From the IMG/VR virus record IMGVR_UViG_3300018467_000008, positions 1 to 5,245 of that record: a stretch of 5,245 bases of DNA; one strand, written 5' to 3'. The position numbers and the translations under genes are program-made. This DNA is from a virus. Lineage: Duplodnaviria; Heunggongvirae; Uroviricota; Caudoviricetes. This document shows positions 1 through 5,245 of the stretch, piece by piece; the stretch's first letter is position 1; each line of letters begins with the position of its first letter. The notes beneath the pieces are model-generated. The model searched no databases. It saw nothing but the letters and a program-made list of their open reading frames with translations, and had not been told where the DNA came from.

Positions 1-552
1 ACCGGCTTCTTCATTTTCGCCCAGCAGAACACCAACTTCGGAAGTACCATCAGCTGTTGCCCACTCCATAGTGCGACCGTCAGAAGTGGTCAGAATCTGC
101 GCCACACTGGCGATGCCACCGTAGGATTTCATCTTCTCAACAACTTTCGCCAGGAATGTTTCTGGTACGGTATATCCGCCCTTTTCATCCTGAGCTACCC
201 CCTGGGCACGAAGTTCACGCAACGCCTTTCGTTCTTCTGATGTCAGCTCACTGGCACCGTGACGCATCCACTTATCAAAAACCTGAGCTCGTTTCTCATC
301 ATGTTGCGGATTGTTTTCCGGATCAAGATTCTGACGCTGCTCTTCCTCATTGCTTTCAATGTACGCCTGATCCTGACGACGCAGTTCTTCTTCGCGTGCA
401 ATTCGTTCATCAAGCGCTTCCAGTTCGGATTTTGCTTTGTTCCACTCAGTGCGCTGCTCTTCCGTCCATGCGTTATCACCAATTTTTTCATTCAGGGCGC
501 GCATGTCAGTTGCGATAGTATTACGTTTCTGTTTCAGTTCATGCAGTTTCAT
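1..552 (-). CDS. Major capsid protein, HK97 family, N-terminal 184 codons only (C-terminus lies beyond the window start)
   Basis: ATG at 552..550 preceded by AAGGAAACATC (Shine-Dalgarno AAGGAA, about 5-nt spacing). The frame is open all the way to position 1 with no stop. Translation begins MKLHELKQKRNTIATDMRALNEKIGDNAWTEEQRTEWNKAKSELEALDERIAREEELRRQDQAYIE, a charged, heptad-like helical N-terminus typical of the HK97 delta (scaffold-like) domain, followed by ...DEKGGYTVPETFLAKVV, which resembles the start of the mature capsid domain. It sits immediately downstream of the prohead protease, the canonical HK97 order. Not in the ORF track because it is truncated by the window edge. Confidence 0.85.
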   Translation of the reverse strand, partial: MKLHELKQKRNTIATDMRALNEKIGDNAWTEEQRTEWNKAKSELEALDERIAREEELRRQDQAYIESNEEEQRQNLDPENNPQHDEKRAQVFDKWMRHGASELTSEERKALRELRAQGVAQDEKGGYTVPETFLAKVVEKMKSYGGIASVAQILTTSDGRTMEWATADGTSEVGVLLGENEEAG

Positions 553-562
553 GATGTTTCCT

Positions 563-1165
563 TTACGCGTTAAGAAGGGTCAGGACGCGTTCACGCGCCA
601 TACGTTGATTAATGGCTTTCTGTAGCGCGCCACTGTTGCGCGCCTCCTGCCATGCTTTCATGGAGCGAACAGCCGAGTCAGCCTCCTGATAGGCAGGATA
701 TGTCACAGGACTGACATCCAGCAGACGGGAAAAGCGGGTTATCTCGCGAATAACAACCCCGTCCTCATCCTGATACCACTCCTCACCGTCACGGGCGACA
801 CGGAAAGCGAAAGATGACTGGTTAATATCTCCACATTGCATCGGGGCCAGCACCAGATCACGAATGGTCTGTGTCTCCGGAGCCTGGATGTCATAGCGTA
901 ATCCGCGCTCATCAACTGAAAGATTCAGCGTGCCTGCTGCACTACGCCCAAGAATAAAATTAGGATCGTGGTTAAACAGTGCGCGTACATCATCACCAAG
1001 CACATCGTCAAAAGCGCCGGGCCGGATGATTTCGCGGAATGAACCGAATATCAGCTCAGAACGACAGTCAAACACCGATCCATAACCGATAATGTGCGCC
1101 GGGTTATCGTCATGCCGCTCAGCACGCACCTCACCGCTGTAACAACGGATTTCACGGTCATTCAT
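563..1165 (-). CDS. Prohead maturation protease, HK97 family (S78/U35-like)
   Basis: Minus-strand ORF with TAA stop at 565..563. Translation MNDREIRCYSGEVRAERHDDNPAHIIGYGSVFDCRSEL...FNHDPNFILGRSAAGTLNL... fits the size and position of a prohead protease, between portal and capsid. Preferred start is ATG 1165..1163, which has GAGGG 8 nt upstream and overlaps the portal stop (ATGAATGA). The ORF track's longer version starts at ATG 1222 (219 aa) but has no convincing ribosome-binding site and overlaps 65 nt of portal coding sequence; ATG 1180 is a third option. Confidence 0.85.
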   Translation of the reverse strand: MNDREIRCYSGEVRAERHDDNPAHIIGYGSVFDCRSELIFGSFREIIRPGAFDDVLGDDVRALFNHDPNFILGRSAAGTLNLSVDERGLRYDIQAPETQTIRDLVLAPMQCGDINQSSFAFRVARDGEEWYQDEDGVVIREITRFSRLLDVSPVTYPAYQEADSAVRSMKAWQEARNSGALQKAINQRMARERVLTLLNA

Positions 1166-2384
1166 TGGTTTTTCCCTCATCGTTTTTTGGGGGCTTAAAA
1201 TCTCCTGCCGGGTTAGCAGCATTCACGCTTACCAGCATCTCATCCAGCCCTTCAACCGGATTCATATCCTCGAATGCGCGGGCCTCATTACGGCTCATCC
1301 ATCCATCGGTAATAGCGAAGTGATAGAATTGCGCGCGCTCCTGCGGAGTTCCGCGTAAAAGCCCCGTCAGATTGAACCTGACGTAATACCCGGCGGCTAA
1401 CTCAGCGCGGGTAAACAAGCGACGGTTAAGCTCCTGCTCCCAGTTCGTCACCCACGGCATCATCGTGTAGCGGACAAACTGAATCGCCTGCGCAGAAATA
1501 TTGGAGAAGGTGGCTTTTTCGAGGTCATTAATCATGTGCGCAGGAATATTGAAAATACCGGCGATCATTGAACGGTTCAGCTTCATCATGTCAATGATCT
1601 GAGCGTCAACTGGCGACACAGTCAGTGCCTTGTAATCCAGATCGGCTGGCAGCAGCATGGTTTTGTTTTCCTGGCGGCGTAACGCCTGCGATGCCTTCTG
1701 CCACTGATCTTTAAGCCAGCCCCAGCTTTCCTTATTGAGTCCGCTTTTAACGGATACTATCCCCGCCGGACGGGCATTACCGCTGAAGAAGCTTTCTGTG
1801 TACTTCTGACCGCTCATCCCCATGCCTATTGTTTCGGCATGTTGCATAATCGGACTCAGCCCCATCTTCTGATTATTACCCAGCGCACGGATGTGGATCA
1901 TATCGTCCGGACTGATCGCAAACGCCCCATATTCGTTGTACAAACCGTAGGTATATCGGCCACCAGTATTCATCAGCGTCGTTTCCCACGGCATACAGCA
2001 ATCCAGGGATATGACTTCACCGCGACGATTACGTTTCACCCAGGTATATCCATTCCCCCAGCCAAGGATGTGACGTTGCTTCAGTTCGCGCCATTTGTAG
2101 CTGGTTTGCCAGGTATTGGGCTCATCATGAACCAGATAAAACGCAGGATGATCGCGTGCGGGTTCAACCTTCCCCTTGTACCTGCGCATAACATGCAACG
2201 GCATCTGGGCAAGGCTGGAAGACAGGACATAGATACAGGAATACACCGCAGCCAGTTTCATCGCAGTCTCAGGACTGACATAAACGTCTGCCCGGAACAG
2301 CCCATCAGTATCAACGGCATCCCCGGTTATCGGGGTGGAAGGATTCTCCAGTGATTTACTTCTGAACAGAGCATCAAGCAGCAC
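1158..2384 (-). CDS. Portal protein, HK97 family
   Basis: About 408-424 aa minus-strand ORF, TGA stop at 1160..1158. It lies between large terminase and prohead protease. The region ...LFRADVYVSPETAMKLAAVYSCIYVLSSSLAQMPLHV...HPAFYLVHDEPNTW...ILGWGNGYTW has the look of an HK97-type portal core. Start chosen as GTG 2384..2382, preceded by GAAGGGGGACGC (Shine-Dalgarno-like), giving an N-terminus [16 protein letters not shown]. The track's GTG 2432 start would add a Trp-rich 16-aa extension ([10 protein letters not shown]) with no ribosome-binding site, which I judge less likely. Start is uncertain within 2261-2432. Confidence 0.9.
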   Translation of the reverse strand: MLLDALFRSKSLENPSTPITGDAVDTDGLFRADVYVSPETAMKLAAVYSCIYVLSSSLAQMPLHVMRRYKGKVEPARDHPAFYLVHDEPNTWQTSYKWRELKQRHILGWGNGYTWVKRNRRGEVISLDCCMPWETTLMNTGGRYTYGLYNEYGAFAISPDDMIHIRALGNNQKMGLSPIMQHAETIGMGMSGQKYTESFFSGNARPAGIVSVKSGLNKESWGWLKDQWQKASQALRRQENKTMLLPADLDYKALTVSPVDAQIIDMMKLNRSMIAGIFNIPAHMINDLEKATFSNISAQAIQFVRYTMMPWVTNWEQELNRRLFTRAELAAGYYVRFNLTGLLRGTPQERAQFYHFAITDGWMSRNEARAFEDMNPVEGLDEMLVSVNAANPAGDFKPPKNDEGKTNE

Positions 2385-2535
2385 GCGTCCCCCTTCTGGC
2401 CATAGCCAGTGCGCCCACCAGCAGTAAAGCACCGGACAAAATCAGAGCCGGAGCCATACCAAACTGCAGGTAAACCCCGCACGTAAGCAGGCCAAAACCA
2501 GCCAGCCCGATAACATCAGCAATTAGTGATTTCAT
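2374..2535 (-). CDS. Hypothetical small hydrophobic protein (53 aa, two predicted transmembrane segments) between large terminase and portal
   Basis: Read directly from the sequence, not in the ORF track. ATG 2535..2533 overlaps the large-terminase TGA stop (2534..2532) as ATGA; TGA stop at 2376..2374 lies 6 nt past the preferred portal GTG start. Translation: [53 protein letters not shown], two hydrophobic stretches and a basic C-terminal tail. Codon usage is CTG/GGC-rich like the neighbours. No Shine-Dalgarno upstream, so expression would depend on translational coupling. It overlaps the alternative extended portal frame, so it could be a chance ORF. Confidence 0.4.
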
Positions 2536-4265
2536 AGAATTAAGAGATCATCGTCCGGATCAAGAGATGAGAGGAAATCGTCAGGTTCTTTGAGCATTGC
2601 CCGACCGATCGTCATAATCAGTGCAACCGCACCATCGATTTTGTTTTCCGCCTGCTCCTTGACGGGCTTCACTAAATCATCGTTACCTGGCATGTTTTTG
2701 CCGACCACATTGCCGATACACCAGGTCATGATGGGATTGCCGTCATGATGAAAGCGTCCCGATTCAATCGCTGCTTCCAGCTCTTTCATAGGATCGGACA
2801 TATTGGCGAAGTTCTGGACGATAGTGACGGGATTCAGATCTTCATCAGCAAGGTCATGTGACAGCCCGGTCGCCCCGAAGGGGTCGATGGGTGACTCACT
2901 GACCGGGCTGATTTTGTTCGCCGCTTTGGCCTCTTCGAGGATGTAGCGATAATCCACCTCTGCACCATCGGTAACGGTCAGGACGCCCATTTCCACCCAT
3001 TTCTGAAAGCGTTCGGCTGTCCGTCTATCTTCATTTTTCTCGACGCTGTACACCGTGTCATACGGTACCCAGAAACGCGGGGCTACACTGTAGTAATGCG
3101 TTTTACCGTCAATCTCGCGGGTATAAAGTCGCGCCATGCTGTTCATATCCAGTTTACGCGCCAGGTCAAAGGCCAGAATGCACGGCTGCCCCTCGAACTG
3201 CTCAAGGGACAGTGATTTATCCTCGCAGCTCTGCCAGCTCACCAGGTTGAAATACGCCGAACGCGCCGACACCCAGATATTGAGGTGTTTTGTTTTAAAG
3301 ACGTTTGCCAGACGGGCGTTATTTTTCGCACGCTGCTGCTGACTTAACAAAAATTCGCGATAAACCGACACGCCAATATTTGGATTGGCTTTTTCCAGCA
3401 CCTGCGGGTCGGTCCAGTCGTCACCTTCATCAACGGTATAGATGATCCCGAACAGTTCATCGTTAGGCACCGAGCCGTTGAGCATCTCGATGACTTCCCG
3501 CCGTTTGTCGTAGCACGGCCCCTCAATGTTGTACCCGGCGGTAGTGATAGCCCACATCAGTGGCTGACGTCGCGCCCCCATCCCGGTAAGCATCGTGGTG
3601 TAAAGCGCATCTGTGGCGTGCTCGTGATATTCATCCACCACGGAACAGTGGGGTGATGAACCATCACCGGGGTTACCGATCAGCGGTTCAAACCGCGCGC
3701 CATCCTCCGGACGATTCATGTTTGAGGCGTTAACCTCAATCCCGAACGCTTCCGTCAGCATGGGTGTGCGTTTACACATCAGTCGCGCCGGGCGAAAGAC
3801 TTCCCACGCCTGTTTCTCTGTCGTGGCACCGGAATACACTTCCGCGCCAAACTCGTTATCACAGGCAAAACAATACAGGGCAACACCGGCAGAGATTGCC
3901 GATTTGCCGTTCTTACGGGGGATTTCGGTATACACCTCCCGGAAGCGGCGCAGCCGGGACCCTTTATTGACCCAGCCAAACGCACAGCAGACCACAAATA
4001 GCTGCCACGGCTCCAGCGTGATGGGCATCCTCTTGAATGCCCACTCACCCTTGGTGTGCGGCAACAGCTGAATAAATTTGGCGGCCCGTTCAGCCAGGTC
4101 CTTGTCGAAGCGGTAACGAAACGACTTACTTTTTTCCGCCATCAGGTCATCAAGATGGCGCTGGCAGGCCTGAATCACAAACTGGCAGGCCACAATCTTT
4201 CCGCGCACAACATCACGGGCATACTGATTGGCAGCATTTACGTTGGGGTAAGATTTCCGGCTCAT
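2532..4265 (-). CDS. Terminase large subunit (ATPase/nuclease), Terminase_1-like
   Basis: 577-aa minus-strand ORF, ATG 4265..4263, TGA stop 2534..2532. Walker A-like P-loop EIPRKNGKS at about residues 114-122 and Walker B-like hhhhDE in [10 protein letters not shown] at about residues 206-215. The C-terminal half is acidic, consistent with an RNase H-like nuclease domain. Its start overlaps the small-terminase stop (ATGA at 4262-4265) and it is followed by the portal, the canonical order. Confidence 0.95.
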
Positions 4266-4756
4266 GATTCGATGATTTTCAGAAACGGGTTAGTGGCTTT
4301 CTTCTGCCCCGCCAGGCCAATCAGACGCTGGCGGCTGCTGGGGTCGAGTCCGAGCATTGCCCCCGTGCTGCTCATCTCGGACTCCTGTTCTTTTTTGGCG
4401 GTCAGCTCCGGATTTTTGACCCTGCCGCCCATTGCACCGGTGATGGTGTTGCCCTGTATGGCAATATTTTTCACGGCACGTCGCCAGAACTCATAGGCCA
4501 CGCACCACCGCTCAAGCACCGCGAGGTCAGTCACGCACAACAGGCCCTGACCGCAGAGTTCTTTGGTTGTCAGTTGCCACATGATCGTGGCGAGAGGGAG
4601 ATCTTCTTCAGCGAACCACTCTGGTGGCTCAACACCTTTGATGGGCGTAAAAACAGGTTCATCTTTGTTCAGGGCTCGCTTGCCGGGGTTTCCGGCCAGC
4701 GCCTTGCGCGCCGTTGGCTTGGGGCGACGCCCGGAACGCCCCGCCGTTCCAGCCAT
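4262..4756 (-). CDS. Terminase small subunit, P27 family (Terminase_4-like)
   Basis: Minus-strand ORF with TGA stop at 4264..4262. N-terminal [34 protein letters not shown] matches the characteristic GRxGRPPKPTxLKxLxGNPGKRPLN signature of P27-family small terminases as I recall it. Preferred start is ATG 4756..4754 with AGGAG 8 nt upstream; the track's GTG 4765 start lies directly against that AGGAG and is unlikely. Immediately upstream of the large terminase with a 4-nt overlap. Confidence 0.9.
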
Positions 4757-4795
4757 ATGCGGCACTCCTGGTTAAATTTCATTTTTCGCGGGTAT

Positions 4796-4854
4796 AAAAA
4801 AACGATGGGGCGGGCAGTCCTGAAGGCGTCAGGTCACAGGGATTTGGCCCGCCC
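4796..4854 (-). terminator. GC-rich hairpin followed by a T-run on the minus strand in the HNH-small terminase intergenic region; terminator-like, or part of the cos/packaging-site region
   Basis: Plus-strand 4808-4815 (gggcgggc) pairs perfectly with 4847-4854 (gcccgccc), an 8-bp all-GC stem around a 31-nt loop. The loop holds a nested 5-bp hairpin (cctga 4819-4823 / tcagg 4829-4833). Read on the minus strand, the stem is followed by CATCG and then seven T (plus-strand A-run 4796-4802). The 5-nt spacer before the T-run and the large loop are atypical for a textbook intrinsic terminator. Confidence 0.3.
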
Positions 4855-4880
4855 TCCCCTCTGGCAGTGGGAACTGGTTC

Positions 4881-5229
4881 TTACTTCAGCCGTTCACGGG
4901 CCGTCTTCGCCTTATGACACGGCCAGCACAGGCTCTGCAGATTGCTGTCGACATCAGTGCCGCCATGCGATTTAGGGATGATGTGGTCAACGGTCTTCGC
5001 CTCACGCACCACACCAGCACGCAGACATAACTGACACAGGCCTTTGTCACGCTTCAGGACACGCGCGCGGATACTGTCCCACTTGGTACCGTAGCCACGC
5101 TGGTGGCGGGACTGGCCTGGCTTGTATTGCTTCCAGCCTTCGCTTTTGTGGCTTTCGCAGTAGCCTGACGGGTCTGTGGTGGTATTACGGCAACCTCGAG
5201 CACGGCAGGCTTTCGGGATTCGTGGCGGC
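4881..5229 (-). CDS. HNH endonuclease (phage packaging-associated), N-terminus missing at the contig end
   Basis: Minus-strand frame open from 5229 down to TAA stop at 4883..4881. Translation read by hand: ...PPRIPKACRARGCRNTTTDPSGYCESHKSEGWKQYKPGQSRHQRGYGTKWDSIRARVLKRDKGLCQLCLRAGVVREAKTVDHIIPKSHGGTDVDSNLQSLCWPCHKAKTARERLK. It contains paired Cys motifs (CQLC ... CWPCH) and the DH...N...H core of the HNH fold. No start codon is reached before the adapter-like sequence at 5230. Located directly upstream of the small terminase. Confidence 0.9.
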
Positions 5230-5245
5230 AGATCGGAAGAGCGTC
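5230..5245. other. Illumina TruSeq adapter fragment (sequencing/assembly artefact) at the window terminus
   Basis: The terminal 16 nt, agatcggaagagcgtc, are identical to the first 16 nt of the Illumina universal/Read-2 adapter AGATCGGAAGAGCGTCGTGTAGGGAAAGAGTGT, recalled from memory rather than searched. The sequence stops there, cutting the HNH ORF before its start codon. Confidence 0.85.

Follow-up and report, generated by a model that had tools for sequence, protein, structure and literature searches.

A conserved gene for a predicted membrane hairpin at the terminase-portal junction of an SfV-type packaging operon

In phage lambda, the gene between terminase A and portal B encodes gpW, a soluble head-completion protein of 68 residues that acts at the portal vertex. 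In HK97, as a preliminary description of the DNA studied here had correctly said, the slot between the large terminase (TerL) and the portal holds no gene. Small proteins of another kind are recorded at this position elsewhere. YmfR of Escherichia coli K-12 e14 (b1150, IPR020297), with its counterparts Sb3 of ST64B and SfII_03 of SfII, is a hairpin with a basic tail that PHROGs lists in phrog_502 as 'membrane protein', and orf3 of Pseudomonas phage D3 (NP_061499, hypothetical) is a 54-residue hairpin whose gene overlaps TerL by 4 nucleotides (nt) and the portal by 8 nt. Here we describe the TerL-portal junction in a 5,245-nt stretch of Caudoviricetes DNA (positions 1 to 5,245 of IMG/VR record IMGVR_UViG_3300018467_000008; hereafter the window), where an open reading frame (ORF) of 53 codons lies between the two large genes. 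It shares with the lambda W gene only the slot: gpW is soluble whereas the window's product is a hydrophobic hairpin, and a Pfam scan of the small protein returned no gpW-family match. The closest catalogued entries are RefSeq WP_000838376.1, a hypothetical protein without any sequence difference from the window's product that the NCBI Prokaryotic Genome Annotation Pipeline (PGAP) annotates in prophages of E. coli at this very junction, and the full-length family match phrog_7105, the family to which the product belongs and one without functional information. The gene is thus already catalogued, as a hypothetical protein.

A coding gene and the portal start downstream of it

The ORF (2374..2535, minus strand) was found with exactly the 53-residue translation and ATG start given in the preliminary description. 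The ATG at 2535-2533 overlaps the TerL stop as ATGA (2532-2535), and the TGA at 2376-2374 falls within the very beginning of the portal gene, 8 nt beyond the first nucleotide of GTG 2384, again as described. The window holds 31 ORFs of at least 40 residues, and a 53-codon open frame alone is no evidence of coding; what marks this ORF as more than chance is its conservation. Codons were aligned across 12 loci, the window and eleven relatives, with those overlapping TerL and portal left out and 44 kept. In the frame of the small ORF the proportions of synonymous and nonsynonymous differences (pS and pN) were 0.57 and 0.19, giving a nonsynonymous-to-synonymous ratio (dN/dS) of 0.20 as against 0.83 and 2.7 in the other two frames, and variability at codon positions 1, 2 and 3 was 0.27, 0.14 and 0.49. 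This is the frame conservation with synonymous-biased substitutions that the preliminary description had proposed looking for at related junctions.

Protein searches point the same way. A direct search recovered 27 close homologs of the small protein, down to 64% identity and nearly all of 52-53 residues, and a profile search of 1.84 billion representatives recovered 140 clusters, formed at 50% identity, of which almost all are 45-65 residues long and align over their full length, unlike stray hydrophobic matches. The phrog_7105 hidden Markov model matches the window's protein at E = 3.2e-22 and 79 bits, with residues 1-52 covering all 52 positions of the profile, and phrog_7105 is also the best match of distant members of the family. 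Gene callers run on independent contigs, as well as PGAP, called the small gene every time. We regard it as practically certain that the ORF is a real coding gene under purifying selection, so that of the two options first raised the real gene stands and the chance ORF falls. The term 'unannotated' applies to the GenBank and RefSeq records of Shigella phage SfV and does not apply to E. coli, where PGAP has annotated the gene.

The SfV records also bear on where the portal begins. Both start the portal at the equivalent of GTG 2432 and contain no small gene, and in the window the portal frame is indeed open for 19 codons upstream of 2384; on these grounds the stretch could contain no gene at all and be either open by chance or the beginning of a longer portal gene. 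Across the stretch occupied by the small ORF, however, the portal frame has the dN/dS of 0.83 given above and is interrupted by 1-8 stops in the window and in each of the eleven relatives. In 5/11 relatives (loci L013, L014, L015, L019 and L020) a stop closes it 3-5 codons upstream of the common start, and GTG 2432 is not conserved as a start. The energy of the anti-Shine-Dalgarno duplex is -10.8 kcal/mol for GTG 2384, within the top 1% of the window background, against -1.7 kcal/mol for GTG 2432, which has no Shine-Dalgarno sequence. The Shine-Dalgarno sequence of the portal (AAGGGGGA, 2395-2388) sits within the last codons of the small gene. Five relatives have ATG at the equivalent of 2384, the portal start is always preceded by AGGGGG or GGAGG in the relatives compared, and PGAP starts the portal at 2384 in E. 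coli. With the small gene itself called on all independent contigs, the reading without a gene is effectively refuted.

The portal thus starts at 2384 rather than 2432, as the preliminary description had preferred. Because the 2384 start is conserved and has a strong Shine-Dalgarno sequence, the SfV entry over-extends the portal: in records U82619 and NC_003444 (position 2392) it begins 16 codons too early and the small gene is omitted. These reference records should be corrected.

The predicted hairpin and its counterparts at the same junction

The small protein is strongly hydrophobic (grand average of hydropathy 1.25). AlphaFold (AF2, with a 63-sequence alignment) gave a confident helical hairpin with a mean predicted local distance difference test score (pLDDT) of 88.7 and helices at residues 2-25 and 27-52. 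Helix 2 (residues 30-46) is of clear transmembrane grade, with a Kyte-Doolittle (KD) hydropathy of 2.4 and an additive Hessa dG of -1.4, while helix 1 is Gly-rich and marginal, with a KD of 1.9 in the window's protein and 1.0 in a distant clade. The preliminary description of two hydrophobic helices and a basic tail therefore stands for the hairpin, the tail and helix 2, and is weaker for helix 1. Over the 63 diverse sequences, D7, G13, G20, G26, G35 and A42 are near-invariant. The pairs G13/G20 and G35/A42 each have the i, i+7 spacing that a tightly packed helix-helix interface would show, with G26 at the turn. Lysine and arginine together average 1.1 in the N-terminal end, 0.3 in the loop and 2.4 in the C-terminal tail of the same sequences; by the positive-inside rule this distribution predicts that both termini face the cytoplasm. 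The model thus describes what is very probably a small inner-membrane hairpin, for which an N-in/C-in topology is predicted. D7 would lie level with R47/R48, and they could form a clamp. The invariant R48 is encoded by an AGG codon that is part of the portal Shine-Dalgarno sequence, and the codons of the basic tail are doubly constrained because they also carry that sequence and the portal start.

A lipoprotein signal peptide was considered because of a lipobox-like L-L-T-C19 and was rejected, since most homologs have A, Y, S or G in place of C19. Scans of the small protein and its distant members against Pfam, NCBIfam and PADLOC gave nothing above threshold (PADLOC, 0 families). A profile search of the Protein Data Bank (PDB) gave 0 matches at E <= 1, and Foldseek found nothing significant in BFVD or PDB, a bare hairpin holding little fold information.

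The position of the gene is as conserved as its sequence. All fetched contexts of close and mid-distance homologs have the order TerL, small gene, portal, with the same 4-nt and 11-nt overlaps. The analysis also covered 49 IMG/VR loci, of which 31 belong to a clade that shares about 50% identity with the window's protein and has different junction offsets; TerL lies upstream in 48/48 and the portal downstream in 49/49. Members at 49%, 40% and 32% identity hold the same slot, one of them on a contig of 37.5% GC, and every match in a phage record (SfV, SKA5, Edwardsiella EPP-1, Klebsiella phages and vB_EcoS-733R5) spans the boundary between TerL and portal. Among the hosts are Escherichia/Shigella, Citrobacter, Klebsiella, Edwardsiella, Atlantibacter, Kluyvera, Phytobacter, Symbiopectobacterium and Halomonas; the scan of genome contigs used one narrow pattern and reached only Enterobacterales. 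Viral-contig scans with three further queries (P0073, P0104 and P0083) returned no relatives, and tblastn of P0036 and P0073 against phage records returned nothing.

The two other hairpin groups occupy the same slot with equal regularity. In IMG/VR, the YmfR group has TerL upstream in 80/80 loci and the portal downstream in 79/80, and the D3 orf3 group has TerL upstream in 79/79 loci with a scorable upstream ORF and the portal downstream in 80/80. A membrane-type microprotein at this junction had been called atypical; on the contrary, a hairpin gene of about 50-60 residues is the rule in modules of the SfV, YmfR/Sb3/SfII and D3 types. The groups are nonetheless distinct. The YmfR group has a TerL 98% identical to that of the window, but its hairpin protein has 60 residues, is about 29% identical to the window's, is without the conserved D7 and makes its turn with PP; its gene has a weak Shine-Dalgarno sequence of its own and follows TerL after an 11-nt gap, and the paired portal is only 28% identical to the window portal. 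D3 orf3 shares about 27% identity with the window's protein, its position 7 is not acidic, and the D3-type portal paired with it is 27% identical to that of the window.

Profile comparison suggests that the three groups may nevertheless be related. Against the SfV-type profile, hhalign gave a probability of 89.5% for the YmfR group and 88% for D3 orf3. In a HMMER shuffle control the real sequences scored 26.5 bits (YmfR group) and 27.4 bits, which 0/1000 full or core shuffles reached (maxima 21-22 bits), and reversed sequences scored 7-12 bits. The SfV-type, YmfR-type and D3 orf3-type hairpins, which have a residue pattern in common, are thus likely to be distantly homologous, with convergence on one architecture as the alternative. 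Family assignment is a separate matter. In the family search phrog_502/YmfR (IPR020297) was only the second match of the small protein (E = 5.7e-6), and in the reverse direction Sb3 matched phrog_7105 at E = 0.055; the small protein is, on these scores, a remote relative of phrog_502/YmfR and not a member.

Expression, inheritance and operon setting

No promoter-like site was found on the minus strand within 500 nt upstream of the small gene in a simple consensus scan. The gene also has no Shine-Dalgarno sequence, with a duplex dG of +0.3 kcal/mol where the background mean is -2.7, and the same is true of most relatives, with moderate values in two (L007 and L277). Terminator-like sites are at chance level (4 found against 5.0 expected). 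A weak hairpin at 2481-2465 (minus strand) was considered as an internal rho-independent terminator and rejected as being at that level; a 'putative rho-independent terminator' is also marked inside SfII_03 in the SfII record (L003 2370-2419). The whole block is instead a chain of overlaps: TerS, the small terminase, and TerL share ATGA at 4262-4265, TerL and the small gene share theirs, the small gene and portal overlap by 11 nt (2374-2384), and portal and protease overlap by 8 nt (1158-1165, using the PGAP start). As TerL and the small gene have no Shine-Dalgarno sequence and their junctions overlap, the block appears translationally coupled, and without such a sequence the small gene would probably be initiated by termination-reinitiation after TerL. 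Read from these signals, expression of the small gene is probably late and coupled to translation of TerL. Its GC content of 0.57, against 0.45-0.53 in the flanks, may reflect a product rich in Gly, Ala and Leu.

The sister gene ymfR offers an expression measurement. It rose by a log2 fold change of 4.5, about 23-fold, under SOS-inducing conditions in K-12, where it is listed together with the e14 genes ymfJ, ymfL, ymfM, ymfQ, xisE and tfaP (PMC10012262). In K-12 e14 (L102), ymfR is intact and nearly identical to SfII_03/Sb3 among neighbours that are remnants, ymfN being a chimeric terminase and beeE a truncated portal. The preliminary description had suggested that the small gene could be a moron. 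A moron would carry its own promoter and terminator, and here neither was found and there is no intergenic space on either side; a moron would occur sporadically, and no locus with this portal type lacks the small gene, down to a portal identity of 42%. Together with the missing Shine-Dalgarno sequence, the ATGA coupling and the induction of ymfR with the e14 lytic genes, this disfavours the moron interpretation.

The small gene is inherited with the portal more closely than with TerL. SfII and SfV have TerL proteins 98% identical and portals only 28% identical, and a separate hairpin gene goes with each portal type (PMC3851460). Across 41 non-redundant loci, small-protein identity correlated with portal identity at a Spearman rho of 0.74 and with TerL identity at 0.44. 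In several loci portal and small gene are kept beside a TerL of no more than about 40% identity, and block-wise comparison showed that in these TerL-swapped loci the last ~17 TerL residues (DFLSxLDPDxDLLxL) stay SfV-like. In SfII/ST64B, TerL is ~100% identical up to its acidic tail and then diverges, with the mosaic breakpoint at about 2590-2613. Since the tail stays SfV-like where the rest of TerL has been swapped, the inherited unit consists of the TerL C-terminal tail, the small gene and the portal. The C terminus of the terminase binds the portal in lambda (gpA). The acidic tail of TerL (codons within 2535-2613) is a probable portal-docking segment. Lying between two co-adapted partners, the small gene would be co-inherited whatever its role.

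The window is the start of an HK97-type late operon with all genes on the minus strand, and belongs to an SfV-type head-packaging operon (HK97-fold, P27-family TerS, HNH-associated) in an SfV-like prophage. Its junction region matches SfV at 99.4% identity and prophages of many E. coli genomes at 100%; a 701-nt junction query found a partial match in 1375 of 5426 complete genomes and was matched over at least 80% of its length in 256. The features discussed here are collected in the table.

Table. Genes of the window and landmarks at the TerL-portal junction.
Feature	Position	Strand	Remarks
HNH endonuclease	about 4881-5231	minus	
P27-family small terminase TerS	4262-4765	minus	
Large terminase TerL (TerL_ATPase + TerL_nuclease)	2532..4265	minus	no Shine-Dalgarno sequence of its own; ATGA overlap with TerS stop at 4262-4265
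TerL C-terminal acidic tail codons	2535..2591	minus	co-segregate with small gene and portal type
ATGA overlap, TerL stop (TGA) / small-gene start (ATG)	2532..2535	minus	4 nt in common
Small gene	2374..2535	minus	53 codons + TGA; product identical to RefSeq WP_000838376.1, phrog_7105 member
Helix 1 (predicted)	2464..2514	minus	residues 8-24; Gly-rich (G10, G13, G15, G20), marginally hydrophobic; nearly invariant D7 just before
Turn (predicted)	2449..2463	minus	residues 25-29, F-G-x-A-x; G26 97% conserved; predicted short periplasmic loop, few K/R
Helix 2 (predicted)	2398..2448	minus	residues 30-46, clear transmembrane segment; G35 invariant, A42 97% small, i, i+7 spacing
Basic C-terminal tail RRGTRAA	2377..2397	minus	codons also carry portal Shine-Dalgarno sequence and portal start
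Portal (PF04860)	1158..2384	minus	408 residues from GTG 2384; 11-nt overlap with small gene
S78 prohead protease	563 to about 1165	minus	
Major capsid gene start	from 552 downwards	minus	

At the far edge of the window (noted region 5230-5245), positions 5230-5242 are an exact match to an Illumina adapter core (AGATCGGAAGAGC), and the minus strand opens with GACGCTCTTCCGATCT, the end of the TruSeq adapter, in place of the HNH start codon region. The contig end is therefore an assembly artefact. The HNH gene was considered as fragmented and this was rejected: its frame is intact and its start has been clipped, not broken, by the adapter. Symbiopectobacterium purcellii CP189882 (L010-L012, L271-L275) has at least 5 copies of the HNH-TerS-TerL-small gene-portal module in one genome, one of which adjoins pyocin S / cloacin-immunity genes. 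In a relative (L005, 303-761) the HNH and terminase genes are closely preceded, on the other strand, by an AcrIF11-like ADP-ribosyltransferase of anti-CRISPR family PF26151.

Possible roles of the hairpin

We tentatively favour, as plausible though short of probable, the view that the gene encodes a late, TerL-coupled inner-membrane hairpin that is accessory to the portal/packaging module in the lytic cycle. Ribosomes that have just finished TerL would translate the small gene through the ATGA overlap, and its last codons would supply the Shine-Dalgarno sequence and start codon of the portal, tying its expression to that of TerS, TerL and portal in lytic growth. The hairpin might then keep the initiation of the portal ring or prohead, or the docking of TerL on the portal, near the inner membrane, whether through direct contact or because the operon mRNA is tethered there co-translationally. 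Its contribution would be helpful rather than indispensable, because HK97 does without it. The step to a function in assembly or packaging is in itself rather doubtful, though such a portal/packaging role would accord with the deep, position-locked conservation of the gene and its coupling. There is a precedent in T4, in which head assembly starts on the inner membrane via the portal gp20 and YidC (PMC9026906). T4 gp20 with YidC/gp40 thus shows that portal rings and proheads can be initiated at the cytoplasmic face of the inner membrane. It differs from the present case in that it has no sequence or structural kinship to the small gene and uses a host insertase together with a larger phage chaperone.

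Several points weigh against a packaging accessory. The marginal hydrophobicity of helix 1 makes the predicted topology a tentative one, and with only ~7 residues at each end predicted to be cytoplasmic the protein would offer a soluble portal few contacts. HK97, on which knowledge of this head type is modelled, forms its heads with no gene of the kind. Co-inheritance with the portal is less telling as evidence than it looks, as anything between the TerL tail and the portal would travel along, and the 41 loci behind the correlations are not phylogenetically independent. The promoter search was a simple consensus scan only. Finally, searches of the literature yielded no functional description and no experiment or structure tying any member of the family to the portal or to assembly.

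The same small cytoplasmic exposure would suit action within the membrane, and an envelope-directed accessory protein, acting in superinfection exclusion or another modulation of the host membrane, either in the lysogen like a moron or in lytic growth like T4 Imm, is an unlikely alternative. From its place in the inner membrane, such a hairpin would bar the DNA of incoming phages or alter a host membrane protein. Superinfection exclusion (Sie) factors such as T4 Imm and HK97 gp15 are usually small inner-membrane phage proteins, which is where the likeness lies, and the absence of the gene from HK97 indicates that it is dispensable for this head type. PHROGs places the sister family phrog_502 under 'moron, auxiliary metabolic gene and host takeover', a placement that follows only from the label 'membrane protein'. 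Sie morons, however, typically have independent expression signals, whereas the small gene has no promoter-like site, Shine-Dalgarno sequence or terminator. It is never sporadic: it accompanies its portal type even at 32% identity, probably in all of three portal lineages that are 27-28% identical, and it lacks any PADLOC, Pfam or NCBIfam match. Its sister ymfR rises with the e14 lytic genes and not as a standout gene of the lysogen.

A holin-like, antiholin-like or depolarising peptide that tunes the timing of lysis is more improbable still. The predicted layout does recall class II holins and pinholins such as phage 21 S21, which are small inner-membrane proteins with two helices, N-in/C-in topology, a Gly-rich first helix and a basic C-terminal tail; the Gly-rich helix 1 (KD 1.0-1.9) would be like a signal-anchor-release (SAR) helix, beside a strongly hydrophobic helix 2. 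One distant member has a match to PF07332 (Phage_holin_3_6) at E = 0.0028, but at 18 bits it is below the cut-off of 28.4, and no holin family reaches threshold with the small protein. The small gene does not lie in a lysis cassette beside endolysin or spanin genes, and the lysis gene of a relative (PF03245) is found beyond HNH and outside the packaging operon. At 53 residues with a loop of ~4 residues, the protein is also shorter than known pinholins, and a role in lysis leaves the strict portal-adjacent position unexplained.

A further reading is that the ORF only hands ribosomes from TerL to portal and sets their ratio, its peptide being functionless. Both neighbours are overlapped, the portal Shine-Dalgarno sequence lies inside a gene that has none of its own, and the invariant R48 is encoded by the AGG of that sequence. 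Purifying selection on the peptide over 44 non-overlapping codons makes such a translational bridge highly improbable, however, as do the residues conserved from D7 to A42 across the 63 sequences and the length and hairpin architecture kept in three groups. HK97, moreover, couples TerL straight to the portal with no bridge.

As a sequence feature, the small gene is known and ordinary for this phage lineage. In the searchable literature we found no description of junction-locked hairpin genes as a class, of the inherited block with its three parts, or of the corrected start of the portal; these points are useful but incremental. What they add is that the small gene belongs to a widespread, position-locked class of hairpins of ~50-60 residues, including YmfR, ST64B Sb3 and D3 orf3, inside much-studied phage operons, and that the block of TerL tail, small gene and portal marks a probable terminase-portal docking unit. 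A bolder and unlikely extension is that the SfV, YmfR/Sb3 and D3 orf3 hairpins are one ancient family of membrane partners of portal/terminase docking, which would localise portal-ring nucleation, prohead initiation or packaging at the inner membrane in many HK97-fold temperate phages. If so, these phages would have a T4-like membrane-initiated step that was overlooked because the models HK97 and lambda lack the gene. Should the hairpin indeed tie portal assembly or packaging to the membrane, the picture of HK97-type head assembly as a purely cytoplasmic process would change.

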